DNA of 64,000 nt from Candidatus Woesebacteria bacterium UBA5073 (GTDB lineage: Bacteria > Patescibacteriota > Microgenomatia > UBA8517). A model generated the notes under the pieces. That model saw nothing but the letters and a program-made list of their open reading frames with translations. It did not search any database and was not told where the DNA came from. Shown here piece by piece: positions 37,856-61,304 of the stretch. The stretch is from contig DIAR01000010.1 of the NCBI GenBank assembly GCA_002415845.1, positions 12,920 through 76,919 of the forward strand, written 5' to 3'. The position numbers were made by a program, and so were the translations under genes. Position 1 is the first letter of the stretch; every line of letters begins with the position of its first letter.

Positions 37856-37861
37856 ACGCGA

Positions 37862-37890
37862 TTGAATTTACGATTATTTTCGATTATACT
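37862..37890 (+). promoter_or_regulatory. Candidate sigma-70-type promoter for rpsT (TTGAAT, 17 nt, TATACT)
   Basis: TTGAAT at 37862-37867 and TATACT at 37885-37890, about 50 nt upstream of the rpsT ATG, in the divergent murJ/rpsT intergenic region. Confidence 0.35.
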
Positions 37891-37939
37891 TCCATTTTGG
37901 AGAAACAAGAATAAGAAATTCTCTAAAAATTTTATAAAA

Positions 37940-38236
37940 ATGCCAGTAACCAAAACAGCCAAAAGAGCCCTCAGAAGCTCAAAAAGAAAGAGTGAAGTTA
38001 ACGCCAAAATTGCCGCCCAATTGGCGGTTTTAATGCGTCAAGCCAAAAAAACCAAATCGGCCGAAAAAATTAGAATGGCTATGTCCTTGGCCGATCGTGC
38101 CGCCAAGAAAAAGGCCATTCATGCCAATAAAGCTTCACGAATTAAAAAGGTTTTGGCCAAATTAATGCCTAAGGTTTCCGTTAAAACCGCTGCTAAAAAA
38201 ACCGTTAAAAAGACCCCTGTTAAGAAAAGTAAATAA
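37940..38236 (+). CDS. rpsT: 30S ribosomal protein S20 with Lys-rich C-terminal extension
   Basis: The track ORF starts at 37808, but MPVTKTAKRALRSSKRKSEVNAKIAAQL at 37940 is the S20 N-terminus. Tail KVSVKTAAKKTVKKTPVKKSK. Confidence 0.85.
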   Translation: MPVTKTAKRALRSSKRKSEVNAKIAAQLAVLMRQAKKTKSAEKIRMAMSLADRAAKKKAIHANKASRIKKVLAKLMPKVSVKTAAKKTVKKTPVKKSK

Positions 38237-38282
38237 TCCCCTTTTTCCCTTTCGGTCAGCCTCAGCAATATGATATAGTGGT

Positions 38283-38858
38283 TTGATGGCTGCCCTTAAA
38301 AAAGTAATTAAAATTAATCTTTTACCCCAAGAAGAATTTGCCAAAAGTACTTTTGGGCGAATCTTAACTTGGGCCTTATCCGGTTTCAGAGTCATCGTTA
38401 TTGCCGTGGAACTGATAGTGATGGCGGCTTTCCTTTCCCGCTTTTGGCTCGACGCTAAAATTAACGATTTAAACGATGTTATCCGGCAAAAACAAGCTTT
38501 AATTTCTTCCCAAGGCGAGTTTGAAAAGAAATTCAGGGATATTCAAACCAGAATCACCATTTTTAGCGGAGCCAAAGCCATGGCTTCTACCCCCTCAACC
38601 GAACTGGAAAAAATTGCCGCTTTTCTGCCAATGGATGTTGCCCTTTCTTCATTTACCTTTAATGAAGGAAAGGTTCAGATAAAAGGTGTTGCCGGCAGTG
38701 AAATTTCGGTTGCCCAATTAATGGCCAATTTGGAAGGAACCAAGCAATACAAAGAGGTTCTTTTAACTTCCGTCGGCAATGACCCAAAAAATGAAGCCAT
38801 GATTACTTTTATCCTGGATTTAACACTGGGAACAACCGAACAAAAGAAAGGAACTTAA
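38283..38858 (+). CDS. pilN: Type IV pilus assembly protein PilN-like
   Basis: 191 aa. N-terminal KINLLPQEE motif characteristic of PilN, a single TM helix, a coiled-coil segment and a periplasmic domain. Confidence 0.5.
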   Translation: MMAALKKVIKINLLPQEEFAKSTFGRILTWALSGFRVIVIAVELIVMAAFLSRFWLDAKINDLNDVIRQKQALISSQGEFEKKFRDIQTRITIFSGAKAMASTPSTELEKIAAFLPMDVALSSFTFNEGKVQIKGVAGSEISVAQLMANLEGTKQYKEVLLTSVGNDPKNEAMITFILDLTLGTTEQKKGT

Positions 38859-38861
38859 AGA

Positions 38862-39512
38862 ATGGCACCTAATTGGCGAAAAGAATATTCCCGTTATCAA
38901 ATCATCTTTGCAAAGGTTTTGGAAGTTTATCGAAAAAGACCGGACGTCAAAACTTTTCTTGAACTACTTCTGACTCTTTCGACTGTGGCTATTTTTACTG
39001 TTTTTGCTTTAAAACCAACTGTCATTACCATTATTCAACTTCTAAAAGACATTAAAACCAAGGAAACGGTCATTGTACAAATGGATACCAAAATCAAAGC
39101 CTTGGCTAGTGCCCAAAACCTTTTTTCCCAAGAAGCCAGAAGAATCGTTTATGTTACCAAGTCAGTTCCGGAAAAAGCCTTACCGGAAAACCTTGTCCGT
39201 GAATTGGAGGGTTTGGCCCAAAAGAACGCCGTCACCCTAAACAGTGTTTCAATTAACGAATTAACCCTTCTTGGGGTAAGTACCGAAAAGGTTAATCCAA
39301 AGGAACAAATTTTTCTTCAGGGAGCCAGTGGGCTAGCTTTTACCGCCAACACAAATGCCGACTTTACCGTCCTGCTACCTTTCTTAAAAGATTTGGAAAA
39401 GTTTTTGCGGCCGGTTGTTCTTGACAGCTTTTCCATAGCCACGGGTGTCAATCAAGAAACCAAAACAATCAACATGTCTATTTCAGGCAAGGTTCCGTAT
39501 TTGAGTAAATAA
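38862..39512 (+). CDS. pilO: Type IV pilus assembly protein PilO-like
   Basis: 216 aa. Short N-terminus, TM helix (LLLTLSTVAIFTVFAL), coiled-coil and a C-terminal alpha/beta domain. Lies immediately after the pilN-like gene, separated by 3 nt. Confidence 0.4.
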   Translation: MAPNWRKEYSRYQIIFAKVLEVYRKRPDVKTFLELLLTLSTVAIFTVFALKPTVITIIQLLKDIKTKETVIVQMDTKIKALASAQNLFSQEARRIVYVTKSVPEKALPENLVRELEGLAQKNAVTLNSVSINELTLLGVSTEKVNPKEQIFLQGASGLAFTANTNADFTVLLPFLKDLEKFLRPVVLDSFSIATGVNQETKTINMSISGKVPYLSK

Positions 39513-39514
39513 TT

Positions 39515-39847
39515 ATGCCCAAAAAACAAAAACCATTTTTTGTAAGAATTGTTATCCTTTCAACCGTCACGGCCATTGTCTGGGTTGGATCAACTATTTA
39601 TAAAACCGTTTCAAAAAAAGAGGAGCCGAACATTCCCGTCCAGATATTAGAACCCCTGACTCCGACTTTAGACAAAAAGGTACTTGACGAATTAGAGAAT
39701 CGGGTGTTTCTTGAAGAGAGCACAATCCCTGAAACAAGGGTTGAGGTTGGTGTTCAAGCAGCAACACCAAAACCGGTTGAAACGATTGCCCCGGAGGAAA
39801 CACCTGTGGCGACCGAATCAGGAGAAGAAGCAGGAGAAGAAATATGA
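39515..39847 (+). CDS. Small single-pass membrane protein, acidic Pro/Glu-rich C-terminus (hypothetical; PilP-like position)
   Basis: 110 aa. N-terminal TM helix (FFVRIVILSTVTAIVWVG). Overlaps the next gene by 4 nt. Confidence 0.35.
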   Translation: MPKKQKPFFVRIVILSTVTAIVWVGSTIYKTVSKKEEPNIPVQILEPLTPTLDKKVLDELENRVFLEESTIPETRVEVGVQAATPKPVETIAPEETPVATESGEEAGEEI

Positions 39848-41166
39848 AAAAAAGAAATAAAATCCCGACGGTTATTGGTTTCTTTGTCCTTGTCTTTGGA
39901 CTGGCAGCCGGAGTTTTTCTGGTTCAAACTAAACAACTTTTTAAGACCAGTGCCTCGCTTGATACTACCCCCTCTTCGGTTCAGATTTCCAACACGACCG
40001 ACAGTTCTTTTACAATTACCTGGCTTACTTCCAAGGAAACAACGGCTTTTGTTAAGTTGGGTGACAGTGCCAGTCTTGATCAAACTTTAACCGATGAAAT
40101 TGCCAACCCGTCTTTTACCCATTCGATAACCGCAAAGAATTTAACACCGGGGACTCCCTACTTTTTTAAAATCAATTCCGACGGAACTGATTTTGACAAC
40201 AACACTACTCCCTGGCAAGCCCAAACCGGACCTACCTTAACGGGAACGGCCGGCTTTAGCGTTAATGCTTCCGGAACGGTTTTGGACCAAACTTCAACTC
40301 CGGTTGAAAAGGCTTTGGTTTTCTTAAATATCGGTGGAGGGGTAACTCTTTCCGGAGTAACTTCCCAAAATGGCACCTGGGTTATTCCTATTAACGGCGT
40401 TAGATTATCCGATCTGTCGGGTTATCTTAATGTTGACCCGACCCAAACTTTAATTGAGATTTCGGTTAATGCCGGACCAAACGGAATTTCAACCGCCCAA
40501 ATATATCCTCAATCGGTGGCGGCCGTCTCAACTATGGTTTTGGGGCAAGTTCATGATTTCCGAAACCTGGCCCCGGCCAATGCCGGAGGCGTTCCTTCAT
40601 CCTCACTGGAAGCACCGCTTGAAACAACCGAGTCTTCAAGTTTTAATGTTGGTGATAAAGTTTCGACACCCTCGGCCAAAAAAGTAACTCTGGATAACAT
40701 TGATAACGGTGAAATCGTTAATACCCAAGACCCAGAATTCTTTGGTAAAGCACCGGCCGGAACAACCCTAACCATTACCGTTGAATCGGACGATCCGGTA
40801 ACCGAAACGGTTAAAGCTTCCGCAACTGGAACGTGGAATTGGGATCCGCCTAAAGATTTAACTCCGGGAGAACATAAAATTACCGTTAAATGGAAAGACA
40901 CCAGCGGTATTTGGCAAACCATAACCCGCACCTTTATTGTTTCAGCATCCGAAGGTCCGGCTTTTGTTTCCACCCCTTCAGCTACTTTAAAAGCAACTAA
41001 AACGGCAACACCAACAGCGACAAAAAAACCAACCGCTAAACCCTCTCCCACCGGGGCAGCCGACATCCCCGAATCTGGCAGCTTGACACCTACTCTCATC
41101 CTTTCTATTATGGGGGTAGGCGCAATTGCTATGGCTTTATTGTTTTGGAAGAAAGCCGAATATTAA
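39844..41166 (+). CDS. Secreted multidomain surface protein (FN3-like, carboxypeptidase-regulatory/CnaB-like and Ig-like domains) with C-terminal IPESG sorting-signal-like tail
   Basis: 440 aa. N-terminal signal or anchor helix. An FN3-like segment (SVQISNTTDSSFTITWLT...PGTPYFFKI), then a SGTVLDQTSTPVEKALVFL transthyretin-like domain, then an Ig-like domain. The C-terminus reads IPESGSLTPT, a 20-residue hydrophobic helix, then KKAEY. Confidence 0.6.
   Translation: MKKRNKIPTVIGFFVLVFGLAAGVFLVQTKQLFKTSASLDTTPSSVQISNTTDSSFTITWLTSKETTAFVKLGDSASLDQTLTDEIANPSFTHSITAKNLTPGTPYFFKINSDGTDFDNNTTPWQAQTGPTLTGTAGFSVNASGTVLDQTSTPVEKALVFLNIGGGVTLSGVTSQNGTWVIPINGVRLSDLSGYLNVDPTQTLIEISVNAGPNGISTAQIYPQSVAAVSTMVLGQVHDFRNLAPANAGGVPSSSLEAPLETTESSSFNVGDKVSTPSAKKVTLDNIDNGEIVNTQDPEFFGKAPAGTTLTITVESDDPVTETVKASATGTWNWDPPKDLTPGEHKITVKWKDTSGIWQTITRTFIVSASEGPAFVSTPSATLKATKTATPTATKKPTAKPSPTGAADIPESGSLTPTLILSIMGVGAIAMALLFWKKAEY
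41065..41163 (+). other. C-terminal tripartite sorting-signal-like segment: IPESG, hydrophobic helix, KKAEY
   Basis: Read directly from the translation. The DNA atccccgaatctgg is nearly identical to the equivalent site in the 43368-44039 gene. Confidence 0.5.
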
Positions 41167-41173
41167 AAACTAA

Positions 41174-42778
41174 ATGCCCAACGACCAGCCCGATCAAACC
41201 AACCCAATAAACACACTGCCCGTTAATCCACAACCGGTCACCCCACCAATTCCAGAACCAGCTGTTGTTACACCGCCAATGGATATTCCCCCAATGCCGG
41301 AACAATCAATGGAAACACCGATGGCAGACGGTTCAGCCGCTCCGTCAGTTGATATGCCACCAATGGTGACAGGCGGAGGACCAACCAAAACCAAGAAAAA
41401 ATTCGGAGGGGGAAAGTTTATTCCTACTATCTTAGGACTATTAATTCTCACCGGAGCCGTTAGTGCCGGAGCATATCTTGTTAGACAAAATCAGGATGTA
41501 AGAGAAAAAGCAGCTGGTGCTTGCGATGCTAGTCATGTTGGCGACAGGGAAATTACTAGTTGTACAACCACCGATGGATGTTCGGGGCAAATGACAAGTA
41601 CTTGCATTATGAATGGTCCAAATCTTTATTATTGGGTTGACGGCACTTGTGTCAAAAATGATGCAAATTGTCCAGAACCTGAGGTAACTTGTGTAAATAA
41701 AAATCAGAGTTGTGCCACACAACCCTGTTGTGAAGGCCAAGGAACTTGCCAAACTACCCCTTATGGAAAAGTCTGTGCAGATCCAACCTGTACTGCCGGA
41801 CAAACCAAATGTCAGGCCGAGGGATCGTCGTTCTTTGAATATACATGTCAGAATGGAGGTTTTGTTAAAACAAAGACTTGTCCTGAAGGATGTAGCGGAA
41901 ACGTTTGTGCAAATACGGCAACTTGTGTAAATCTTAGCCAAACTTGTAGTGATTCAAAACCCTGTTGTGAAGGCCAAGGAACTTGCCAAACTACCCCTTA
42001 TGGAAAAGTCTGTGCACAACCAACCTGTACTGCCGGACAAACCAAATGTCAGGCCGAGGGATCGTCTTATTTCCAATATAATTGTGACAATGGAGGTTTT
42101 GTTAAAACAAAAAATTGTGGAACTGCAGGATGCAATGGAAACGTTTGTGCGACAAGTTCGAACACTTGTACAACTACTGGTGATTGTGTGTCTTTCTGCA
42201 ATCCGGACAACCCAGCATGTTGTGGTGGCGGAAGCGACTTGCAAAATTGTAGCGAACCTGGGTGTAAGTCGGCCAGTTGTCAGTTAAACCAGGGGAAAAA
42301 GGAATGTTATTGCACCGGCACAAATTTATGTACAAATTGGATCGAAAATTGGAGTGTTTGTACGACAGCCGGAAACACGAATTCTTGTACGCCAAACAGT
42401 AAAAAATGTTATCAAACCAGATTTTGTGCCACCCCGGGAATTAATGAATATCAAATTGCTGAATGTGATTGTGGAACTGTTGTAGTTTATCCACAGTGTA
42501 GTGCCGTTAAAGCTTATAAAACCGACTGGACTGCCCTTAATACGACTCAGCTTTCAGCTCTTGCTCCCGGAACAGTGGTTAGATTTACGGTTTTAGGAGC
42601 CAACGGTACTTTTACCCAAGCCAGATTTAAAATAACCGGAGACACTACCTGGAGAACACCGGTTACGACCAAGAAACTTAGTACCGATGAGTTTTATACG
42701 GAATACACTATACCGACAACAGGTGGAACAATTACGGTTGAAGCCCAGGTGGGAACATCAACCGATGCTTGGTATTAA
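41174..42778 (+). CDS. Cysteine-rich type II membrane protein: Pro-rich cytoplasmic N-terminus, one TM helix, large extracellular Cys-rich domain with two tandem roughly 80-aa repeats
   Basis: 534 aa. N-terminal MPNDQPDQ...PPMVTGGG...KKKFGGGK, then the TM helix FIPTILGLLILTGAVSAGAYLV, then the YLVRQNQDVREKAAGA motif. About 60 Cys residues follow. Repeat 1 is CVNKNQSCATQPCCEGQGTCQTTPYGKVCADPTCTAGQTKCQAEGSSFFEYTCQNGGFVKTKTC; repeat 2 is CVNLSQTCSDSKPCCEGQGTCQTTPYGKVCAQPTCTAGQTKCQAEGSSYFQYNCDNGGFVKTKNC. Confidence 0.6.
   Translation: MPNDQPDQTNPINTLPVNPQPVTPPIPEPAVVTPPMDIPPMPEQSMETPMADGSAAPSVDMPPMVTGGGPTKTKKKFGGGKFIPTILGLLILTGAVSAGAYLVRQNQDVREKAAGACDASHVGDREITSCTTTDGCSGQMTSTCIMNGPNLYYWVDGTCVKNDANCPEPEVTCVNKNQSCATQPCCEGQGTCQTTPYGKVCADPTCTAGQTKCQAEGSSFFEYTCQNGGFVKTKTCPEGCSGNVCANTATCVNLSQTCSDSKPCCEGQGTCQTTPYGKVCAQPTCTAGQTKCQAEGSSYFQYNCDNGGFVKTKNCGTAGCNGNVCATSSNTCTTTGDCVSFCNPDNPACCGGGSDLQNCSEPGCKSASCQLNQGKKECYCTGTNLCTNWIENWSVCTTAGNTNSCTPNSKKCYQTRFCATPGINEYQIAECDCGTVVVYPQCSAVKAYKTDWTALNTTQLSALAPGTVVRFTVLGANGTFTQARFKITGDTTWRTPVTTKKLSTDEFYTEYTIPTTGGTITVEAQVGTSTDAWY
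41690..42170 (+). repeat. Intragenic tandem direct duplication, two copies of about 240 bp with long identical nucleotide stretches
   Basis: For example, ccctgttgtgaaggccaaggaacttgccaaactaccccttatggaaaagtctgtgca occurs at about 41721 and again at about 41961. actgccggacaaaccaaatgtcaggccgagggatcgtc also occurs twice. This explains the near-duplicate spurious ORFs at 41712-41930 and 41949-42287. Confidence 0.85.
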
Positions 42779-42784
42779 AAATAT

Positions 42785-43342
42785 ATGAATAATTCTAAAA
42801 AGAAAATCTCAAGTTTTGTAATTCTGTTTGCCACGGTTATTTTGGCAGGTGTTGCCATCTTTACGGCTGTAAGACTTTATCAATTAAGACAACAGGCCGT
42901 TGCCCCTAATGTTCCTACCAGTAAACCAAAGGCAGCTGATAATGCCAGCAGTTGTCTTTTAACTTTTACCATTTCCGTTTCCTCGACTTCCCCGTCGCCG
43001 ACGGCAACATCGTCCTCTCAACCGACACCAACGGCTACGGCAGTGGCGACAGTGACCCCCACTCCAACCTCAACCGGTGGAACACCAAACAATTGTGGTG
43101 GCACCTGCGGCTCAAATGCCAACTGCAACTCGGCCCTTATTTGTTATTCCGGTTTTTGCCGAAATCCATCTTGTACTTCAGACACCGATTGTGTCTGCGG
43201 AACAACAGCGCCGACACCCACTAAAACAGCTGCACCAACCGAAGAACCTTCCTTACCAGATGCCGGAGTATCAACACCAACCCTCTTTGGCTTTGGAGCA
43301 GGCATAATTCTTCTGATTGTCTCTCTTGCTCTTGCCCTTTAG
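42785..43342 (+). CDS. Small secreted Thr/Pro-rich protein with an 8-Cys knot-like module and C-terminal LPDAG sorting-signal-like tail
   Basis: 185 aa. N-terminal anchor or signal (FVILFATVILAGVAIFTAV) followed by RLYQLRQQA. A T/P-rich linker. The Cys-rich module is NNCGGTCGSNANCNSALICYSGFCRNPSCTSDTDCVCG. The C-terminus is LPDAGVSTPTLFGFGAGIILLIVSLALAL. Confidence 0.55.
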   Translation: MNNSKKKISSFVILFATVILAGVAIFTAVRLYQLRQQAVAPNVPTSKPKAADNASSCLLTFTISVSSTSPSPTATSSSQPTPTATAVATVTPTPTSTGGTPNNCGGTCGSNANCNSALICYSGFCRNPSCTSDTDCVCGTTAPTPTKTAAPTEEPSLPDAGVSTPTLFGFGAGIILLIVSLALAL

Positions 43343-43367
43343 TCTCTTTTATCGGTATAGTTAAAAC

Positions 43368-44039
43368 ATGCCAACAGATAATCAGAATCCTGCCAATCCT
43401 CTGCCACCTGAAGCACCGATGATGGTAACGGGTGGAGGGAAAGCTAAACAAAAAGTAAATTTCAAAACCATTGCCCTGATTATCGGTATATTTGTCCTTT
43501 TGGGTGGAATCGGTACCGGCTATTACCTTCTTCAACAAAATCAAGACATCAGAAAAAGAGCCCAGGGTGGTGAGGAACAGTGCACCGTATCCCAATGTCC
43601 ATCTGACGACGATCCAAATCGTCTGGCTGAATGTTCTGATTTGGATAATACATATAATATTTCTGTTTGTAGCGAAGAAAGGGCGGGTCAAATTGTTACT
43701 TGTGACGGAGAACCTTTTTGTTGTCCTTATGCTGGTGGAGACTGGACAAACGACACAACTGAATGTGGAAGCTCCCGAACAGCAACACCCACGGCAACGG
43801 CAAAACCAACTGCTACAGCTACCGCTGCATCTGGTGCAACTTTAACTCCTACCCCGACATCAACCGGCTCAAGCGGTGTTAAAACCCCTACCCCAACACC
43901 AACACCAAGAAAAACCGGGTCGACCACCACAACCGCAACACCCGCACCCATCCCCGAATCCGGTGTTTCTACTCCAACCATTGTCGGACTTGGTTTAGGA
44001 GCCCTGCTTCTTCTTGTTTCGCTTGCCCTAGCTATCTAA
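43368..44039 (+). CDS. Small secreted Cys-rich, Thr/Pro-rich protein; paralogous N-terminal anchor module (MVTGGG, TM, YLLQQNQDIRKRAQGG) and C-terminal IPESG sorting-signal-like tail
   Basis: 223 aa. N-terminal MPTDNQNPANPLPPEAPMMVTGGGKAKQK, the TM helix, then YLLQQNQDIRKRAQGG; compare the 41174 gene. A Cys-rich module with 10 Cys, a T/P/A-rich linker, and the C-terminus IPESGVSTPTIVGLGLGALLLLVSLALAI. Confidence 0.55.
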   Translation: MPTDNQNPANPLPPEAPMMVTGGGKAKQKVNFKTIALIIGIFVLLGGIGTGYYLLQQNQDIRKRAQGGEEQCTVSQCPSDDDPNRLAECSDLDNTYNISVCSEERAGQIVTCDGEPFCCPYAGGDWTNDTTECGSSRTATPTATAKPTATATAASGATLTPTPTSTGSSGVKTPTPTPTPRKTGSTTTTATPAPIPESGVSTPTIVGLGLGALLLLVSLALAI

Positions 44040-44043
44040 AGAG

Positions 44044-46497
44044 TTATCTCCAGGAGATTAACCAATAATATGATTTATCCAACCAAAGAGGAATTTGAAG
44101 TCCTGCCCAATGGGGATAAAAATAGAAAAACAACAGAAGGGTAATTCCCAGAACCGGAAGGATCAGTTTTTCATTTTTTCTTAAAACAAAACCGGACGCC
44201 AGACACATAAAAGGAACCGCGGGCAAATAGTGATAGAAAAACATAATCCTGGGCGACATCATCCAGGGAACAAAAAAGATCAGATAAGAAAAGATAACCA
44301 AAGCCAGCTTTTTATTCTTTTCGATAAAAGCATAATAAAAAGACATGATAACGGAAGTTAAACCAAACCAAAAGACGGCCGGATTCCCGAGATTATAGAT
44401 TCTGGCTACATATCCATTAACTTCATCGCTGGTATACAAATAGACCGGCCGAATCAAGAAAGGCCAACTTAAAGCCTGTGAGGTATACGGATGTGTCGCT
44501 TTCAAACCGGTATGGTACCACCACATCTGTTTTTGGACTCCCCAAAAAATATCCAAGCCGTGGCCCGTTAAAAACATGGGCGTATAAGAAGCCAAATAAA
44601 TAAGAAGCGGCACAACAGCAAAAGAAAAAAGGGACAGATCAAATTTTTTCTTTCTGGATAACCAAATCAGAAAAAGAATCGGCAGACAATACAAAGATGA
44701 CCACTTGGAAGCAAGGGCTAAACCAAAGGCAACGGCTGAAAGAAAATTCTTTTTTTGTAAGAAGAGATAAACCGTCAAAAGAATGAAAAACAAAACATAA
44801 CTGTCATTCATCCCTATCCGGCTCATCGTTAAAAACAAACCGTCCATAGAAAAAAAGAATGAGGCAATAAGCGCCAGTATTTCATCTTTGAATAATTTCT
44901 TGGCCAAGAAGTAAACCAGGATTGTGCTTCCGACGCCCAAAAGAGCTCCCGGAATTCGCCAGCCAAAAGCGTTCTCACCAAAGACAAGCATCCCCAACCA
45001 CATCCCCAATTTAGCCAACGGCGGATGCGTCCATTCATAGGCAAAACCTTCCGGTGGTGTGTTCCACCATTCCCAAGCAGCTACATTACCATTAAGCATT
45101 TGTCTGGCGGTAAAAGCATGATAAACCTCATCAAAATACTCGCTCTCTGGTTTATTCAAAAACAAAACTCGGGAAAAAAAAGCAAAGACAACAATTAAAA
45201 CAAAAAAGATTTTGATTAGTTTGGGATTTAATTTAATTTTGGGGAATCCTGCTTTTTCTTTGGGTAGCTTAAAACTTTTATTTTTAATGGAAAGATAAAA
45301 GTTTTTAATTTTCAACAGATAATTGGCCTTTTGTCCCAAAATTACTTCTTTTAAAAGAAGAGAGAAAGCAGCCAAATTAGCGATAATAAAAAGCTTGATA
45401 ATCGGTTCTGAGAAAATCTCCTTAAAATCATTAGTAATCCAAACATAGGAATAGGCCAGATTGGCAACATAAGTTAGTGATAAAACCAGATAAACCAGAA
45501 TCAGGTTGGGTAGGGAAATTGCAGCCACTAAAAGCGGTGCCAAAATTGGCAAAAGGTGTCTTTCGTGCATACGGGTCAAAAACAAAAAGGCCGACAAAAG
45601 AACTAAGGCAACCGGCAAATATTTATCTTCCCTATTCTTGGACTTTAAAAGATAAACGCCAAAAGTTAATGAAACCAAAAAGAGGCCAACGTACGATAAC
45701 GGTATTTGGGTCAGGTCTGATTTCCAGAAACCAAAAAGGCCCCAGAAATTAAAGGCATTAACCGAACCGTACGGATACTGGTTCAAAGTTACGGAAAGTC
45801 TTTCCGCTATAAAAGATAAAAGCGGTTGTCCATCCAGGAATGGAACAAAGCCTAAAGAAAAAATTGCTAAACCAACAACCCCATATAAGACAAGGTTGAC
45901 TATTTTTGTTTTGTTTTTAATTAAAAAATAAATTATGACCGGTAAAATAAATCCTGCCTGTGGTTTAATCAGCGTTCCCAACGATAAGGTAATGGCCGAG
46001 AAAAGCCAGTTCTTTTCCAAAAGATAAACGGCCAAAAGAATAAACAGAGCCGAAAGAGAATCAACCTGACCCCAAAGAGTTGAGTTGGTAATAATCGCCG
46101 GATTAAAAAAATAAAGACTGGCTAAAATTAGACTCCATTTCTCCTCCAGTTTTTTTCTGGCAATTTTAAAAATCAAAAAGCCGGTCAATAAATCCGCCAT
46201 AATCGCCGGCAATTTATAAAGTAGCACTTGGGGAAGAATTGATAGTTGGTTTATCTTTCCTAAAAGAAACAACAAATAGGGATACCCCGGAAGGTAATCC
46301 GACCAGCCCAAATAATATTTAGAAAAACCTTCATCAACCAAAATATTGCTCCAGGCCAAAAAGGTATTGAAGTCAAGTTGTAGCGTTCCGAAAAAGGAAA
46401 GAACAATCCTTAAGGTAAGAGCCGTCAGGATTAAAAACAGAATCTTGCTTTCAAGCAGTTTATTTAACTTCGTAAATTTTAACGCTATTGTTTTCAT
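44044..46497 (-). CDS. Two-module polytopic membrane protein; the C-terminal half is a GT-C glycosyltransferase of the PMT/ArnT (GT39/GT83) type
   Basis: 817 aa with more than 20 predicted helices. The second half carries a PMT-like first-loop motif (SEYFDEVYHAFTARQM ... EWTHPPLAKLG ... RIPGALLGVGSTILVYFLAKKLF ... MNDSY). The N-terminal half is another polytopic domain (NILVDEGFSKYYLGWSDYLPGYPY). Confidence 0.55.
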   Translation of the reverse strand: MKTIALKFTKLNKLLESKILFLILTALTLRIVLSFFGTLQLDFNTFLAWSNILVDEGFSKYYLGWSDYLPGYPYLLFLLGKINQLSILPQVLLYKLPAIMADLLTGFLIFKIARKKLEEKWSLILASLYFFNPAIITNSTLWGQVDSLSALFILLAVYLLEKNWLFSAITLSLGTLIKPQAGFILPVIIYFLIKNKTKIVNLVLYGVVGLAIFSLGFVPFLDGQPLLSFIAERLSVTLNQYPYGSVNAFNFWGLFGFWKSDLTQIPLSYVGLFLVSLTFGVYLLKSKNREDKYLPVALVLLSAFLFLTRMHERHLLPILAPLLVAAISLPNLILVYLVLSLTYVANLAYSYVWITNDFKEIFSEPIIKLFIIANLAAFSLLLKEVILGQKANYLLKIKNFYLSIKNKSFKLPKEKAGFPKIKLNPKLIKIFFVLIVVFAFFSRVLFLNKPESEYFDEVYHAFTARQMLNGNVAAWEWWNTPPEGFAYEWTHPPLAKLGMWLGMLVFGENAFGWRIPGALLGVGSTILVYFLAKKLFKDEILALIASFFFSMDGLFLTMSRIGMNDSYVLFFILLTVYLFLQKKNFLSAVAFGLALASKWSSLYCLPILFLIWLSRKKKFDLSLFSFAVVPLLIYLASYTPMFLTGHGLDIFWGVQKQMWWYHTGLKATHPYTSQALSWPFLIRPVYLYTSDEVNGYVARIYNLGNPAVFWFGLTSVIMSFYYAFIEKNKKLALVIFSYLIFFVPWMMSPRIMFFYHYLPAVPFMCLASGFVLRKNEKLILPVLGITLLLFFYFYPHWAGLQIPLWLDKSYYWLISWR

Positions 46498-48424
46498 AGA
46501 CTTTTTTTATATTTTGGTTGTTGTCAAAAAGAGTTTCGCTGTTCGGATTTTTATCCCTTTCCTCACCACCCAAGTAAATATACCTTGCATTATACTTGGC
46601 AAGAACGGTTTTTGTGTAATTAAAATCATCGGCTTTTTGATACAGGGACTCAATATCTTCAAGCCTGGCAAAAACATTATCCTCACCCGTATTATAACCG
46701 TGTGAATACGGCCAGTTAATATAGGAAAGAACCCTCAGCCTTCCCCCGATTTCCGAAACGGCCGAATGAACGGTCGGGTAAGTTATAAAAACCGATTTCT
46801 GGGGCGTAGCCCTTCTTATAAAAAGACCGGCCGCAAGTTCATCAAGAGAATAGCCCATGTTTTTATTTAAGGTGCTGTTAGTCAGGGTTAAAAAGGAGGA
46901 AAAGGTGGTCACCAAAATAAGAAGGCCGAACAAAATTTCCAAAACCAATTTCTTTCTAAAAATAAGATCCAAAAACCAAAAAGAAACAATCGACATAAAA
47001 ACAACCATGAAATAAAAAAACTTAAACATGTCGCCTTTGTAAATCGTAAAGCGAACGAAATACGGTATAGCGAAAAAAACTAAAGACAACGAAACAAGAA
47101 GGAAGAATTCTTTTTTAATTGGTTTCTTTTGAAAAAATCGGACAATTACCCAAAATAAAGACAAAAGGGTCAGGAAAAAAGGCAAACCGAAATTAGAAGC
47201 AATAAACCTTAAGTGCCAAAAAATGTTTTTCTCTCTTTCCCAAGGACCAAAGGAAAAATTTTCTTTAACCAGACTAAAAAAGGATTGCTGATTAACGCTT
47301 CTGTTCGAAAATAAAAGATAGCAGGAAGCAAAAACAGCCAAAAAGATTAAGGCACTCTTAACAAAAAACTTAAATTTCTTTTTTTGAAAGAAAAAAAGGG
47401 TGGTAATCGTAAAGACAATCAAAGAAACAACAACCGCAAAAAATTGAAACTTAATTAAAAAACCGGCGATCAAACCAGCTAGAAAAATAATTCTAAGATC
47501 CTTCTTCTTATAAGCGAAAATTGATAAAAGTAAAATGATAATTACGGCCGGAAGGCCAATCATCATCGGTCGATTTTGCAAAAAGTAATCAGCCATGTTG
47601 GCCATCTGAAAAAGCTGATCATATTCCATCGAATATTCATGACTGGAAAGAAGCCCAACTATATTTTTTATTAGAGACAATTTGCCAAAGTTCTGCCAAA
47701 AATCGTAAATGAATTTAACAAAAAGATAACTACTGAAAAGAGTTCCAGAAAAGGCCGAGGCCAAAGCAATTATTTTCTTTTTGGTTAACTCATACACCAA
47801 GCCGTAAATTGAAAGAGTAAAAATCAGGGCAAAAAAGGGATTGTCATAAACTAAAATTCTTGGGAAAAAACGGCCATAAAGAGTGGAAATAATGGCCGAA
47901 TGAAAATCGGCAAAGTAGTAATAAGACAGGGAAACACCGCTGTAATAGGGCGCTTGGGGTGGAAAATTGCCCTGGGTAAGACTTTGAATAATTCCCTGAT
48001 GCATGGCCGTGTCCTGCCAATTAACCGAGGCCATAACAATGTAACCTTCATACTCAGTGAAGATGGCGGGATATAAAGCCAGAAAGAACAAGAGAAAGAT
48101 AAAAACGCCCATAAACAAAGCCTCTTTATGATTTTGAAAATATTTTTTAAAAACCCGTCCGATACTTTTGTAAGAACAAACCAGCCAGGGAATAAAAAAG
48201 GCGAAAGAAAGAAGAATTGAATAACGGGAAAAACCAACCAATAAACTAACCAAGTACACCAAATAAGAGGACAGAATCACGCTTAAAAGAAAGATCGATG
48301 GTAGTTTAATCCTTACCGGAAGCTTAGGAAAAAACGTTTCGATTACATAGAAACCCGGAATGAAAAAGGTAAAGATAAAACCCAAGATTAAAAGACTGTG
48401 GTCTATGATATTGCCGGCCATCAT
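46460..48424 (-). CDS. Polytopic membrane protein with C-terminal soluble domain; probable GT-C-fold glycosyltransferase-like (family undetermined)
   Basis: 654 aa. About 13 hydrophobic helices, then a roughly 140-aa hydrophilic C-terminal domain. Overlaps the downstream gene by 38 nt. Confidence 0.35.
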   Translation of the reverse strand: MMAGNIIDHSLLILGFIFTFFIPGFYVIETFFPKLPVRIKLPSIFLLSVILSSYLVYLVSLLVGFSRYSILLSFAFFIPWLVCSYKSIGRVFKKYFQNHKEALFMGVFIFLLFFLALYPAIFTEYEGYIVMASVNWQDTAMHQGIIQSLTQGNFPPQAPYYSGVSLSYYYFADFHSAIISTLYGRFFPRILVYDNPFFALIFTLSIYGLVYELTKKKIIALASAFSGTLFSSYLFVKFIYDFWQNFGKLSLIKNIVGLLSSHEYSMEYDQLFQMANMADYFLQNRPMMIGLPAVIIILLLSIFAYKKKDLRIIFLAGLIAGFLIKFQFFAVVVSLIVFTITTLFFFQKKKFKFFVKSALIFLAVFASCYLLFSNRSVNQQSFFSLVKENFSFGPWEREKNIFWHLRFIASNFGLPFFLTLLSLFWVIVRFFQKKPIKKEFFLLVSLSLVFFAIPYFVRFTIYKGDMFKFFYFMVVFMSIVSFWFLDLIFRKKLVLEILFGLLILVTTFSSFLTLTNSTLNKNMGYSLDELAAGLFIRRATPQKSVFITYPTVHSAVSEIGGRLRVLSYINWPYSHGYNTGEDNVFARLEDIESLYQKADDFNYTKTVLAKYNARYIYLGGEERDKNPNSETLFDNNQNIKKVYENNSVKIYEVK

Positions 48425-48442
48425 ATTATTATATAAAGAATC

Positions 48443-49603
48443 ATGTTAAAAAAATGGGGTTTTTGGTTTCTTTTGTTTTTGGGACTCCTTTTAATTATTT
48501 ATTGGGCTACTTCGCCCGGTAATACACCGTATAACTATTTTGTTAAGTTGAGTGAAGCTTTCCTGAAAGGCCAATACTGGTTAACCGATAACCCGCCCTG
48601 GCTTAACGAATTAATTAGCGGTCCAAACGGTAAATACTTTATTCCATATCCGCCCATGCCGGCGATACTTGCCCTTCCTTTTGTTTTTATTTTCGGTGGG
48701 GAATTCCCCCAGCAAATTCTTGGCCACCTGCTGGGTGTCGGCATTGTTCTTTTCACCGTTAAATCCGCCCTTCTTGTTAAGAAAAATTATAAAATTGCCG
48801 TTTATATTGGTCTTTTAACCGGTCTTGGAACAATTGTTTGGTATTTGGCCTCCAACGGTTCCGTCTGGTATCTGGGACAAATTTCGGCGGCTTTTTTCCT
48901 CACTGTGGCCATCAACGAAACCCTGGATAAAAAAAGGCCTTTTGTTGTAGGCCTTCTTATCGGAGCAGCCTACCTTTCCCGGGTTAATACTTTTGTCTGT
49001 CTACCTTTTTTCTTTTTCCTAATGATTAAAGACAAACGTTTTTTCAAGAAAAGTATTCTGCTTGCCCTGGGATTATTGCCTTTTTTGGGTTTTAATTTTC
49101 TCTATAATTTTCTGCGTTTCGATGTTATTTGGGATAAAGGTTATAGCCTAATCCCCGGTGTTTTATCAGAACCATGGTATCAAAAAGGTCTTGTTTCCCT
49201 TTCTTATATTCCCAGGCACTTAAAAATTCTTTTTCTTTCCTTACCAAAATTCATAAATAAATTTCCTTTTGTTTATCCTTCCTGGGGAGGCCTAGCAATT
49301 TGGATAACGACACCGGCTTTTATTTATGCTTTATGGGCTCCCTGGAAAGAAAAACTGACAAAACTTTCTTGGTTGGCTATCGCCTTAATCTCAATTATCA
49401 TTTTCTCCCACGGAACAACCGGCTTTACTCAATTCGGATATCGCTTTGCGGTTGATTTTTATCCTTTCCTTCTTCTCTTAACCATTAAAGGAATTGCTAA
49501 AACGGGCTTAAAATGGCATCACTGGGTTTTACTCACCTTAAGTATATTGGTTAATTTCTGGGGTGTTCTTTTTATTAATAAATTAGGGTTTGTCAGTTTC
49601 TAG
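48443..49603 (+). CDS. Polytopic membrane protein, possible GT-C/DUF2029-like glycosyltransferase (hypothetical)
   Basis: 386 aa with roughly 9-11 predicted TM helices. No soluble domain. Confidence 0.3.
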   Translation: MLKKWGFWFLLFLGLLLIIYWATSPGNTPYNYFVKLSEAFLKGQYWLTDNPPWLNELISGPNGKYFIPYPPMPAILALPFVFIFGGEFPQQILGHLLGVGIVLFTVKSALLVKKNYKIAVYIGLLTGLGTIVWYLASNGSVWYLGQISAAFFLTVAINETLDKKRPFVVGLLIGAAYLSRVNTFVCLPFFFFLMIKDKRFFKKSILLALGLLPFLGFNFLYNFLRFDVIWDKGYSLIPGVLSEPWYQKGLVSLSYIPRHLKILFLSLPKFINKFPFVYPSWGGLAIWITTPAFIYALWAPWKEKLTKLSWLAIALISIIIFSHGTTGFTQFGYRFAVDFYPFLLLLTIKGIAKTGLKWHHWVLLTLSILVNFWGVLFINKLGFVSF

Positions 49604-50666
49604 TCAGAAGATCGCTTACCCAAGCGTTCACTTTCGTCCAATCTCCGTCTTTGGGAATAAAAACATATTGATTGTCATATTCTGTGGTTGGTTTGGGATT
49701 AACTAAAAAGTCCTCGGATAAAACAACCGATCGGATATGACTACTCGCCTCTAAAAACTTTCGTCCCAAGATAGCCACCGCCGATGAATCAATATCCGTC
49801 TCGACCGAATTTACAAAAACTTTCCAAATACCAAACATTTTTTTAGGCGAAAGAAAAACAGACGGGTTTAACATTTTTGTTTTAATGGCCGAAAGCATTT
49901 TTTGCTGACGGGCTTCCCTGGCTAAATCCGTTCCCTCAACACCTGAAGAGTTCCTCGACCGGACATACTTTAAAGCCGTTGTTCCATCCATATGCATTTT
50001 TCCTTTTTCAAAAGTTATTGTTTCATAACGGCACTTATATTCCTTATCCCCGTCACATAAATCGTTTTCTTTACCATAAATGGGATATTTTTCATCGGTA
50101 AAAGAATTTTCAACCATGACGTCAATTCCTCCGATCACATCGATTGCTTTGGTAAAACCGGAAAAATCAATTACCAGCCCGTAATGAATCGGTTGTCCCA
50201 CAATTTCCCCAACCAGTGATTTAGCTAAATCCATTCCGCCCCATTCTTCTTTTTGTTTTCCCCAAAAATAGGCACTGTTTAACTTGGCCCTAATTTCCGG
50301 TACCCAGATATCTCTTGGTAAAGAAACCATTACGAGGGATGGTTTCTCAATGGAAAGCGAGGCGAAAATAATCGTGTCGGTTAAGTCGGGGGCCGTAAAA
50401 CCAGTTCCGCTTCGTCCCAGAATTAAAATATTGGTTCTCCCGGCAAAAGTTTTAATTTTTGTTTCCGGCGTAAACAAGAAATCGGTGATCAGGTGGCGAT
50501 TATTATATTTACCAAAAAAGAAACCGGCAAAAAGAAGAACGGAAACAAGGGAAACAAAAATGAGAAGAATTAGATTGAGCATCGCCTGTTTTTTTCTTCC
50601 CCCAATAGCCCCAACATCACCCTGCCTTTGATCTTTAGAATTGCTATACTGCATCGATATGACCAT
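49593..50666 (-). CDS. LytR-CpsA-Psr (LCP) family phosphotransferase (cell-wall glycopolymer ligase)
   Basis: 357 aa. N-terminal TM helix, then the LCP core: NILILGRSG...DTIIFASL...SLPRDIWV...KLNSAYFWG...IHYGLVIDFSGF..IDVIGGIDV. The true start may be an internal Met, since the annotated 5' end overlaps the divergent pcrA start. Confidence 0.8.
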   Translation of the reverse strand: MVISMQYSNSKDQRQGDVGAIGGRKKQAMLNLILLIFVSLVSVLLFAGFFFGKYNNRHLITDFLFTPETKIKTFAGRTNILILGRSGTGFTAPDLTDTIIFASLSIEKPSLVMVSLPRDIWVPEIRAKLNSAYFWGKQKEEWGGMDLAKSLVGEIVGQPIHYGLVIDFSGFTKAIDVIGGIDVMVENSFTDEKYPIYGKENDLCDGDKEYKCRYETITFEKGKMHMDGTTALKYVRSRNSSGVEGTDLAREARQQKMLSAIKTKMLNPSVFLSPKKMFGIWKVFVNSVETDIDSSAVAILGRKFLEASSHIRSVVLSEDFLVNPKPTTEYDNQYVFIPKDGDWTKVNAWVSDLLTRN

Positions 50667-52562: not shown

Positions 52563-53525
52563 ATGGAGGAAACAAATAAAGAGGCATTTAACCAAGTAGC
52601 TACCCATCCACTACAGTCCTGGGCTTGGGGCGAATTTCGAAAAGCCTGGGGTAATCAGGTTGTTCGATTCCCCTTCGGTCAAATAACTGTTCACAAACTT
52701 CCTTTCTTACCCTTTTCGATTGCCATGTTTATTAAGGGTCCGAAACCAAACAAAGAAATGTTTTCAGTTTTAAAAGAATATGCCGCCAAAAACAAAATTA
52801 TCTTTATTCGAATGGAACCGAATATTGAAAAGGACGAAAAAATAATCTCTTTCCTAAAACAAAATCGTTGTCAGCCGGGACGAAGGCTTTTTACACCAAC
52901 CACTTTCTTAATTGATTTGGCCAAATCCGAGGAAGAACTTCTGAAAAGTTTCTCTTCCAAAACCCGCTATAACATCAGACTAGCCCAAAAACACGGCGTT
53001 ACTGTTTCCGAAGATAATTCCGAGAAAGCTTTTAAGGCTTATTTAAGATTAACCGAAGAAACAACAACCAGACAAGGTTTTTATGCCCATTCACAAAAAT
53101 ATCATCAGTTAATGTGGAATACTTTGCGGAAGGAAAACATTGCCCACCTTCTCACTGCTTCTTATAAAGGAGAATTTATTACCACCTGGATTCTTTTTGT
53201 CTGGAAAGATCATCTTTATTACCCTTATGGCGCCTCAACCGAAAAGTTTAAAAACGTTATGGCTAATAATTTAATGATGTGGGAAGCCATAAAACTTGGG
53301 AGGAAATTAAACCTTACCACTTTTGATTTGTGGGGCCGGGAAGAGGGCAAGGGCTTCACTAAATTTAAAGAAGGTTACAACCCCAAAGTGTTTGCATTTA
53401 TCGGCACTTGGGATTTAATCACTAGCCCACTTTATTACCCCTACACCATCCTGGAAAAGTTAAGGTGGGTTGTCTTAAAAGCTTTAGCCAAATTAGGTTT
53501 TGCCAAAGCCAAATTTAATGCCTGA
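52563..53525 (+). CDS. FemABX-family aminoacyl-tRNA-dependent peptidyltransferase (peptidoglycan cross-bridge formation)
   Basis: 320 aa. SKTRYNIRLAQKHGV motif, then the WGREEGKGFTKFKEGYNPKV C-terminal motif, similar to the GLYRFKKGFGG motif of Fem proteins. Confidence 0.6.
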   Translation: MEETNKEAFNQVATHPLQSWAWGEFRKAWGNQVVRFPFGQITVHKLPFLPFSIAMFIKGPKPNKEMFSVLKEYAAKNKIIFIRMEPNIEKDEKIISFLKQNRCQPGRRLFTPTTFLIDLAKSEEELLKSFSSKTRYNIRLAQKHGVTVSEDNSEKAFKAYLRLTEETTTRQGFYAHSQKYHQLMWNTLRKENIAHLLTASYKGEFITTWILFVWKDHLYYPYGASTEKFKNVMANNLMMWEAIKLGRKLNLTTFDLWGREEGKGFTKFKEGYNPKVFAFIGTWDLITSPLYYPYTILEKLRWVVLKALAKLGFAKAKFNA

Positions 53526-54315
53526 TATTCGTCAAACCCCGGCCTATGCCCAATATTTAACAAAGATTGGTTGGACAGTTGAAACCAACAAAGATGTTAA
53601 TTACTTCATAAAAAAACTGCCTTTGTTGGGAAGCGTCCTTAAAATTCAAAGACCGGAAAAACTGGATTTTAAATTTATTAAAAGTCTGGGAAAAAAATAT
53701 CACGTTTTTCAAACTATTATCGAACCCCATAAAAAGTTATTTTCGCAACATGGTTTTAAACAAATAAAATCTACTTATTTACCCTCAAAGACTTTAATCC
53801 TTGATTTAACCAAATCGGAAAAGGAAATCTTTAACAATTTCCAAAAAGACGCCAAATCGGCCATTAATAAAAACAAAAAAACAAAAGTTACAGAAATTAA
53901 AAACCTTAAAGCTTTTAGAATTTCTTGGAAGAAGACCGTTACAAATAAAAGATATGTTCCACCTCTTACCCACCTTCAAGCCTTAAAAGAATCTTTTAAG
54001 AAAAAATCATTATTTTTATTGGATTCCGATAATTCTGCCGGGGCCATCTTTTTAATTGGTGATAAAACCGGTTATTACTGGCAAGCCTTCACTAACAAAG
54101 ACGGTAGAAAAAAACAAAAACAATATAAAATCGTTTGGGAAGGAATTGCTTGGGCCAAGAAAAACAAATGCAAAAGGTTTGATTTCGAAGGTATATATGA
54201 CGAAAGGTTTCCTAATAAATCCTGGAAGGGTTTTTCCCACTTCAAAAAAAGTTTTAGTGGAGAAGAAATAAGTTATCCCGGCTGTTTTGTGAAATATAAT
54301 CTATTTAAATTATGA
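53518..54315 (+). CDS. Second FemABX-like peptidyltransferase paralog
   Basis: About 265 aa from MPDIRQ. FQKDAKSAINKNKK corresponds to the K-x-RYNIR region. The C-terminal motif is KGFSHFKKSFSGEEI. Overlaps the upstream Fem gene by 8 nt (ATGCCTGA). Confidence 0.5.
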   Translation: MPDIRQTPAYAQYLTKIGWTVETNKDVNYFIKKLPLLGSVLKIQRPEKLDFKFIKSLGKKYHVFQTIIEPHKKLFSQHGFKQIKSTYLPSKTLILDLTKSEKEIFNNFQKDAKSAINKNKKTKVTEIKNLKAFRISWKKTVTNKRYVPPLTHLQALKESFKKKSLFLLDSDNSAGAIFLIGDKTGYYWQAFTNKDGRKKQKQYKIVWEGIAWAKKNKCKRFDFEGIYDERFPNKSWKGFSHFKKSFSGEEISYPGCFVKYNLFKL

Positions 54316-61294: not shown

Positions 61295-61304
61295 TTTTTT
61301 ATTA

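Follow-up and report, generated by a model that had tools for sequence, protein, structure and literature searches.

A fused PMT-family glycosyltransferase beside Thr/Pro-rich sortase-signal proteins in a Woesebacteria-like genome: a candidate locus for surface-protein O-glycosylation

The locus and its genes

The subject of this study is a 64-kb stretch of DNA (hereafter, the window) from a Patescibacteria/Woesebacteria-like host, and within it a membrane-enzyme locus at positions 44044–50666. Its four open reading frames (ORFs) encode an 817-residue protein related to protein O-mannosyltransferases (PMTs), two further polytopic proteins of 654 and 386 residues, and a 357-residue LCP-family phosphotransferase. 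An original prediction, made from the sequence alone, described the interval as a trio of GT-C glycosyltransferases with an LCP ligase, flanking secreted Thr/Pro-rich (T/P-rich) proteins that might be O-glycosylated. The four ORFs are present where it placed them (Table 1) and the polytopic proteins exist, but the count of the trio has to be revised: there are four GT-C or GT-C-like modules, because the 817-residue protein contains two. The prediction had missed this two-module fusion, the sortase-type signals of the neighbouring proteins and the fact that the two extra GT-C-like genes vary between loci. The host has a G+C content of ~42% and is not actinobacterial; homologs are labelled Woesebacteria, Microgenomates or Patescibacteria, and an identical 817-residue protein is present on metagenome contigs.

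The LCP gene lies upstream of the PMT gene on the same strand, and the gene for the 654-residue protein overlaps the start of the 817-residue gene by 38 nt. At its other end, the 817-residue gene faces a plus-strand string of genes that encodes, in order, ribosomal protein S20 (rpsT), PilN (38283–38858), a PilO-like protein, and proteins of 110, 440, 534, 185 and 223 residues. The gap to the 223-residue gene is 4 nt rather than the 5 nt first reported. The adjacency is real, but the two genes converge across it, so the enzyme and the T/P-rich proteins are not co-transcribed.

The C-terminal module belongs to the PMT family

Residues 430–800 of the 817-residue protein match three Pfam families: PMT (PF02366; 54 bits, cut-off 22.7), PMT_2 (68.8 bits, cut-off 26.1) and PMT_4TMC (PF16192; 63.4 bits, cut-off 32.4). 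The motifs that had suggested a PMT-like enzyme are all found in this half, namely YFDEVYHA at 454–461, HPPL at 491–494 and R514-x-x-GALLG, with GALLG at 517–521. When the whole protein was compared with the sequences of solved structures, the sole matches were fungal Pmt4 (9i5k) and Pmt1 (6p25). In the alignment, YFDEVYHA falls on the Pmt1 catalytic motif FDEVHF and contributes the Asp-Glu pair D456-E457, the loop-1 catalytic residues, of which the original prediction had proposed to check the Asp. The segment SPRIMFFYHYLP aligns with Pmt1 QRQMFLHHYLP, and within loop 5 the donor/acceptor-binding motif R-x2-[Y/F] is represented by R750-I-M-F753, aligned with Pmt1 RQMF. D456, E457, R750, F753 and an HPY.S...W block are invariant in 50 homologs of 54–80% identity, and D456-E457 is also kept in the split and C-module-only forms described below. 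D456 and R750/F753 correspond to D74 and R441/Y444 of the Mycobacterium tuberculosis PMT, in which D74 and the R441-x2-Y444 motif are essential, the counterparts of the latter in ScPmt1 being R649/F652 (PMC12331936).

The AlphaFold model of the 817-residue protein (pLDDT 83.8) was compared with the Protein Data Bank (PDB) using Foldseek. Pmt4 was matched with an E-value of 4.5e-11, and Pmt1 and Pmt2 with 5e-6 and 4e-5; ArnT followed at ~2e-3, and the Emb/AftA arabinosyltransferases were not significant (E > 0.1). The nearest solved structures are thus protein O-mannosyltransferases, not ArnT or the arabinan transferases that the original prediction had named as the match that would speak against it. 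In M. tuberculosis PMT, a hairpin that ends loop 4 binds Pro-rich acceptor peptides (PMC12331936). Two short strands, 686–689 and 699–701, are predicted in loop 4 of the present model, preceded by a segment of pLDDT below 50 (667–672). In two homologs a LysM domain interrupts loop 1 of the PMT module, consistent with a location of this loop outside the cytoplasm. Taken together, the C-terminal module is very probably a member of the PMT family, and the proteins already carry the label 'glycosyltransferase family 39 protein' in public records.

The N-terminal module has a compact GT-C fold

The first ~400 residues gave only weak Pfam matches in the window protein, and across the N-halves of 33 orthologs the matches are scattered (PMT_2 in 14, PIG-U in 9, Mannosyl_trans4 in 3 and GT87 in 2). 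Profile comparison links the N-half to the C-half (97.8%, E 7e-13, 248 columns), and the two share recognizable motifs: YPY[GT]S against HPYTS, and R..HERH..LP against R..YHYLP. The best PDB sequence match of the N-module profile is GPI mannosyltransferase 1, with an E-value of 6.5e-8 over residues 84–198 only. Folded alone, the module gave a confident model (pLDDT 88.7, pTM 0.89), and here the structural match spans nearly the whole chain. Structure comparison scored ALG3 highest (27.8), closely followed by ALG6 (27.1) and GPI mannosyltransferase I (26.4), then PIG-U (22.8) and PimE (21.9), with Pmt4 at 17.3 and Pmt1/Pmt2 at 12–13. A Foldseek search of the module returned the same ranking.

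In the 33 orthologs, D42 in the first external loop, W65-x-x-Y68-x-P70 and H311-E312-R313 are invariant, with R309 conserved in 90% or more; D42 is also kept in five stand-alone N-like proteins. The module is without the Glu of the DE motif and has no PMT or PMT_4TMC match in Pfam. The first helix of either module comes after a Lys-rich stretch (residues 1–17 and 388–424), and under the positive-inside rule the first loops of both modules would face outwards. An extending role for the N-module, acting on a sugar placed by its partner, appears somewhat more probable than not.

Fused, split and stand-alone forms

The N–C fusion is found in ~70 Woesebacteria loci. In three distant relatives (L074, L079 from Amesbacteria, and L080), each module has its own gene; the two genes are neighbours, keep the order of the fusion and are divided at the linker, so the 817-residue protein is a gene fusion. 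Two further loci (L081 and L082) have the C-module only, as proteins of 367 and 407 residues, and in one (L058) two additional N-like genes stand alone. None of these split, C-only and stand-alone forms has lost the catalytic residues. The N-like family is broad, with 4,510 cluster representatives at E ≤ 1e-3, and includes stand-alone proteins of ~400 residues, fusions of ~800 residues and longer proteins; the fusion is thus one architecture of a broader family. That the modules are fused argues that they work together.

The T/P-rich neighbours carry sorting signals

The T/P-rich neighbours are real: among the 53 ORFs called in the window, a Thr+Pro content of at least 44% in any 25-residue stretch is confined to the four ORFs at 39844–44039. 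The 223-residue protein has an N-terminal membrane helix, a small Cys-containing domain, a TPTPT stalk, and IPESG followed by a hydrophobic helix at its C-terminus; it looks like a chimera of the 534-residue protein's N-terminus and the 185-residue protein's C-terminus. The 185-residue protein combines a Cys-knot-like core with a C-terminal LPDAG and hydrophobic helix, and the 440-residue protein has a T/P/K stalk and a C-terminal IPESG, helix and basic tail (WKKAEY). The 534-residue protein has a Pro-rich N-terminus, a membrane helix and 48 Cys residues in internal repeats, and shows no sorting signal and no Pfam or NCBIfam family. Its repeats read ...PCCEGQGTCQTTPYGKVCA.PTCTAGQTKCQAEGSS..., and two independent metagenome assemblies terminate within its gene.

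Three of the four T/P-rich proteins therefore end in [LI]Px[SA]G and a membrane helix, and they are the only ORFs of the window with a sorting signal. In related loci, the 185-residue family ends in LP-x-[SAV]-G-x-x-[WT]-P-T followed by ~17 hydrophobic residues (67 ORFs), and the 440-residue family in [LI]P-x-[ST]-G-x-L-T-P-T, a helix and a basic tail; the motif is kept in 60–67 orthologs of each. The basic tail after the helix, present in the 440-residue family, is absent from the 185-residue (...LALAL) and 223-residue (...LALAI) proteins. The T/P stretch directly precedes the sorting signal, the usual place of wall-spanning stalks.

A 220-residue sortase with a TLVTC motif is encoded elsewhere in the window (Pfam Sortase, E 3.8e-23; TIGR01076, 57.6 bits against a cut-off of 39.35) and is likely the processing enzyme for these LPxTG-like signals; sortases have been reported to be near-ubiquitous in Microgenomates (PMC6744442). 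It scores above the general cut-off and below every class-specific one. Its gene lies ~25 kb from the cluster, and the motif it would be expected to recognize, [LI]Px[SA]G, differs from the usual LPxTG.

Conservation of the neighbourhood

One scan of species-representative genomes yielded 80 related loci at 35–58% identity, of which 63 had enough downstream sequence for neighbours to be counted. The order found almost throughout is PilN, PilO-like, 110-residue, 440-residue, Cys-rich and 185-residue genes, converging on the PMT fusion, which is preceded by zero to three polytopic genes and, on its own strand, LCP, and then by UvrD on the opposite strand, FemA and FemB; this layout is kept in ~60 related genomes. 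T/P-rich ORFs make up 192 of 694 ORFs on the downstream flank of the PMT gene, against 1 of 473 on the upstream flank. A convergent T/P-rich ORF lies within 1.5 kb of the PMT stop codon in 59 of the 63 loci, so the GT-C gene and T/P-rich ORFs do co-localise in relatives, contrary to the outcome that would have spoken against the original proposal. In 53 loci the neighbouring T/P-rich ORF has an LPxTG-like C-terminus.

The pairing persists in a split (L079) and a C-module-only (L081) lineage; the exceptions are L047, L076 (Phycisphaerales), L082, and L060 and L080, in which the PMT gene borders directly on the 440-residue gene. L047 has an inversion whose breakpoint lies precisely where the PMT gene and the surface-protein string would meet, with DnaJ-DnaK-GrpE-HrcA-MurJ abutting the PMT gene and the 440-residue ortholog ~7 kb further away. 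In public records, 'uncultured Gammaproteobacteria bacterium' is the title of many contigs that are clearly Woesebacteria-like; such labels look like placeholders or errors.

The LCP enzyme and a variable GT-C slot

The LCP assignment made in the original prediction is correct. The 357-residue protein scores 103.5 bits with PF03816 (E 1.5e-29) and 91.8 bits with TIGR00350 (cut-off 62.3), and matches TagV, MsrR, TagU, TagT and Cps2A among PDB sequences; the TagU, CpsA and LytR equivalog models all score far below their cut-offs. An LCP ortholog stands beside the PMT gene in 64 of the 80 related loci, and the motifs PRD, RSR and D-x-AR-x-x-RQ are conserved in these 64 proteins. The orthologs read L-T-D-T where the usual LCP has R-S-D-T, and they share a conserved Cys pair (END.C.....CRYE, C203/C212).

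Between LCP and the PMT gene lies a slot whose content differs from locus to locus. Counting genes of at least 250 residues in 58 scorable loci, it holds none in 11, where LCP is directly adjacent to the PMT gene, one in 20, two in 22 and three in 5. The 79 slot genes are nearly all polytopic: 39 belong to the 386-residue family, 13 to DUF2298 and 24 to none of the four profiles built, the last with 6–12 predicted helices each. Across loci L003–L082 the slot is hypervariable and looks like a glycan-diversity cassette. The conserved core thus consists of LCP, the fusion gene and the surface-protein string. The 386-residue family occurs in ~40 related loci, in one or two copies, and the 654-residue (DUF2298) gene in 13 of 58, and both genes of the window are variable additions.

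The two extra polytopic proteins had also been called GT-C enzymes. This holds for the 386-residue protein by profile comparison only (hhalign against the PMT module, 97.5%, E 6e-12; against the N-module, 93.9%); it has no Pfam family, its orthologs yielded next to nothing in Pfam either, and its NCBIfam match to LA_3751/2 reaches 27.6 bits against a cut-off of 200. For the 654-residue protein the case is weak: it barely passes the threshold of DUF2298 (29.2 against 27.8 bits), a family matched by 12 of 15 orthologs, it carries a Chlor_Arch_YYY C-terminus, and its family is linked to the 386-residue family at 63% by hhalign. Profiles of both families gave only chance-level matches to the sequences of solved structures.

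A model for the locus and its alternatives

The model starts from what is established above: the family and fold of the modules, their conserved catalytic residues, the fusion/split pattern, the sorting signals and the conserved neighbourhood. The 817-residue protein would be a bifunctional, outward-facing glycosyltransferase dependent on polyprenyl-phosphate sugars. As unfolded T/P-rich segments emerge from the membrane, its C-module may attach an initial hexose, most likely mannose, to their Thr/Ser residues, and its N-module, shaped like ALG3, ALG6, GPI mannosyltransferase I and PimE, may extend that sugar. The preferred substrates would be the T/P-rich stalks of the convergent sortase-signal proteins. 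The 386- and 654-residue proteins could act as strain-variable accessory transferases that alter the glycan, and the LCP enzyme would transfer a polymer from its pyrophosphate-lipid carrier to peptidoglycan or, with lower probability, to these surface proteins. A precedent for initiation followed by extension exists in mycobacteria: Pmt attaches the initial mannose, and PimE, a GT-C enzyme, lengthens the chain (PMC12757957, PMC12331936). For the LCP step, peptidoglycan is the default acceptor and protein the less likely one, with Actinomyces oris LcpA, which glycosylates a sortase substrate, as the protein-acceptor precedent (PMC6381275). We give the full model, initiation and extension of O-mannose on surface-protein stalks, about an even chance of being right. 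Of the interpretation first proposed, the PMT-type enzyme, the LCP enzyme and the conserved T/P-rich adjacency stand, and glycosylation of the neighbours is what we infer from them.

Several points weigh against this model. T/P-rich stalks are common as wall-spanning linkers and need not be glycosylated. The whole ~20-kb region, UvrD and FemAB included, is syntenic in these genomes; because the positions of UvrD and FemAB are equally conserved, the adjacency is weaker evidence than its counts suggest, and part of the signal is inherited order. The enzyme and T/P-rich genes, being convergent, do not form one operon. The C-module is not an equivalog of actinobacterial Pmt (74.6 bits against the NF058602 cut-off of 800), so it belongs with that enzyme at the level of family and orthology of function is not established. 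The N-module is also profile-related to the PMT module, its acceptor, glycan or protein, is not readable from the fold, and its placement relative to the C-module is uncertain in the model (pTM 0.67 for the whole protein). No gene for a polyprenyl-phosphate-mannose synthase (Ppm1-type GT2) or the GDP-mannose pathway was recognised in the window. Which sugar is used, how the two modules share the work, which proteins are the substrates and what LCP takes as its acceptor are all points that we infer. A 517-residue GT2 (61245–62798) was considered as the donor synthase and not assigned, having a weak Glyco_trans_2_3 match and no NCBIfam model; its gene adjoins one for an NAD-dependent sugar 4,6-dehydratase/epimerase (window 61245–63730).

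Two other accounts of the locus appear unlikely, to a similar degree. The GT-C genes and LCP might build and attach a wall glycopolymer or lipoglycan, with the T/P-rich proteins as mere neighbours in a conserved envelope region. LCP enzymes normally attach polymers to peptidoglycan, and the present one matches TagT/U/V, MsrR and Cps2A; it shares a strand with the 817-residue gene and adjoins it in 11 loci. The nearest structures of the N-module all act on lipid-linked glycans, MurJ and FemAB flank a region that is syntenic as a whole, and PMT_2-type GT-C enzymes of Firmicutes glycosylate teichoic acids. Set against this, the C-module has features absent from ArnT/YkcB-type enzymes (PMT_4TMC, the HPYTS..WP region and the predicted loop-4 hairpin), its nearest structures are PMTs, with ArnT weaker by about eight orders of magnitude in E-value, and the locus has no genes for cytoplasmic synthesis of a polymer, whether an initiating phosphotransferase, Wzx/Wzy or an ABC exporter. 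The other account accepts a protein O-mannosyltransferase and makes it a general one, serving many secreted proteins, its place beside the T/P-rich genes being inherited order. Actinobacterial Pmt does act on many Sec substrates (PMC12757957), the genes converge, UvrD and FemAB are equally fixed in order, the L047 inversion breaks the junction, and L076, L082 and L060 are without a T/P-rich neighbour. Yet the junction survives while the slot between LCP and PMT varies from zero to three genes, it is kept in split and C-module-only lineages at 38–47% identity, and the window holds no other T/P-rich ORF.

A third account concerns the enzyme itself: both modules might be protein O-mannosyltransferases with different acceptor preferences, a covalent counterpart of the Pmt1-Pmt2 dimer. 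The N-half was first read in this way, from its profile alignment with the C-half. PMTs of eukaryotes function as dimers, the top Foldseek matches include 6p25 and 9i5k, and PMT_2 is the commonest Pfam match of the N-halves. The fold of the N-half and two independent structure searches point instead to ALG3, ALG6, GPI mannosyltransferase I and PimE, all much nearer to it than any PMT; the DE-motif Glu and the PMT and PMT_4TMC matches are missing, and stand-alone N-like proteins of ~400 residues are common without a PMT partner. We keep a second PMT as a minor rival of low probability. Building on the preferred model of stalk glycosylation, LCP and the fused transferase, which are on the same strand and directly adjacent in 11 genomes, could even serve one pathway: O-mannose would prime the stalks and LCP would add a lipid-pyrophosphate-linked polymer, giving a bacterial 'proteoglycan' on ultrasmall cells, with the GT-C slot setting strain-specific glycans and the PilN/PilO-headed string positioning the proteins. 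We regard this as a speculative and rather improbable extension.

Flanking genes and gene boundaries

The coordinates of the genes and modules are collected in Table 1. Genes for MurJ, the lipid II flippase, and two FemAB-family proteins flank the locus (window 36137–37855 and 52563–54315); these genes, LCP and those of the surface proteins make up a conserved envelope-assembly region of ~18 kb. The starts of the divergent 654- and 386-residue genes are 18 nt apart (48424–48443), and those of the divergent LCP and UvrD genes overlap as called (50641–50666); with almost no intergenic DNA between such pairs, either the promoters must be located within coding regions or the start codons have been called wrongly. 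Scans of the window for tRNAs and Rfam families found no RNA genes.

PilN (Pfam E 1.5e-12) and the PilO-like protein follow directly after S20 (37808–39847), with no PilM, PilB or PilC nearby, an arrangement kept in ~60 related genomes; the two proteins may thus have a role outside a classical type IV pilus. The gene expected to be PilM upstream of PilN is that of S20, and there is no complete type IV pilus operon. The PilO-like and 110-residue proteins match no family.

Table 1. Genes and modules of the locus and its surroundings, in window coordinates
Feature	Position	Strand	Basis or remark
817-residue PMT-family protein	44044–46497	-	ORF call and Pfam
C-terminal module of the 817-residue protein (residues ~425–817)	44044–45225	-	Minimal GT39/PMT without MIR domains
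N-terminal module of the 817-residue protein (residues 1–405)	45283–46497	-	Compact GT-C; followed by Lys-rich linker 388–424
654-residue polytopic protein	46460–48424	-	DUF2298 and Chlor_Arch_YYY C-terminal domain
386-residue polytopic GT-C-like protein	48443–49603	+	Profile comparison
357-residue LCP phosphotransferase, N-terminal membrane helix	49593–50666	-	Pfam, TIGR00350
223-residue T/P-rich protein	43368–44039	+	Sequence features
185-residue T/P-rich protein	42785–43342	+	Conserved convergent neighbour of the PMT gene
534-residue Cys-rich protein	41174–42778	+	Position kept in related loci
440-residue surface protein	39844–41166	+	fn3-like, CarboxypepD_reg and Big_13 domains
PilN, PilO-like protein (unverified) and 110-residue small membrane protein	38283–39847	+	Lead the T/P-rich gene string
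Sortase, 220 residues, TLVTC motif	14698–15360	-	Pfam Sortase, TIGR01076

Significance and comparison with known systems

Work on bacterial protein O-mannosylation has been confined almost entirely to actinobacteria, and there is still debate over its natural substrates and its purpose (PMC12757957, PMC11727336); full-text literature searches found no paper tying Patescibacteria or Woesebacteria to PMT or GT39. The locus offers a minimal PMT of ~390 residues and a natural fusion of a putative initiating enzyme with an extender-type GT-C. Its fixed pairing with short, simple sortase-signal candidate substrates provides clonable enzyme–substrate pairs for an uncultured lineage, and with them a testable pairing for protein glycosylation outside actinobacteria. 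The locus suggests that surface glycoproteins are conserved in the envelope of Microgenomates; its variable slot of transferases would fit glycans that differ from strain to strain, which could affect attachment to hosts or recognition by phages.

The closest parallel is the actinobacterial system. Like actinobacterial Pmt (GT39; Rv1002c/MtPMT), the C-module combines PMT and PMT_4TMC with the loop-1 Asp-Glu and the R-x2-aromatic motif, and lacks MIR domains; the strands predicted in its loop 4 may form a similar hairpin. As in actinobacterial O-mannosylation, in which Pmt is followed by the GT87 extender PimE, the candidate acceptors are Thr/Pro-rich secreted proteins and a second compact GT-C is tied in. 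The two systems also differ: here the modules are fused in 817 residues or, in some lineages, encoded side by side; few N-modules match GT87 (2 of 33), so this one is no clear member, its best PDB sequence match being GPI mannosyltransferase I; and the PMT module, at ~390 residues, falls far below the NCBI equivalog cut-off. The actinobacterial system draws its donor from Ppm1, which was not recognised in the window, and the present one belongs to a Patescibacteria host and is syntenic with candidate substrates and LCP.

The LcpA-GspA-SrtA system of A. oris (PMC6381275) likewise brings LCP, sortase-signal proteins and a sortase together in one genome, and the LCP gene is near surface-protein genes. 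In A. oris the LCP enzyme glycosylates a sortase-anchored protein; here a protein is the less likely LCP acceptor, the glycosylating candidates are GT-C enzymes, the sorting signals follow [LI]Px[SA]G, and a basic tail is missing from two of the three proteins that carry them.

The eukaryotic PMT dimers (Saccharomyces cerevisiae Pmt1-Pmt2, 6p25; Pmt4 homodimers, 9e61 and 9i5k) are the best structural matches of the whole 817-residue protein, their catalytic motifs align with those described here, and they also bring two GT-C modules into one unit. They differ in that the 817-residue protein is without MIR domains, its second module is not PMT-like in structure, and its inter-module geometry is not reliably predicted. 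In Firmicutes, GT-C enzymes of the YfhO/YkcB type decorate teichoic acids outside the membrane, using C55-P-sugar donors. As in those bacteria, polytopic GT-C proteins here occur in genomes with LCP ligases and a monoderm envelope; the YfhO/YkcB-type enzymes, however, have neither PMT_4TMC nor the PMT loop-4 hairpin, whereas the best matches of the 817-residue protein are PMTs and not ArnT-like enzymes.

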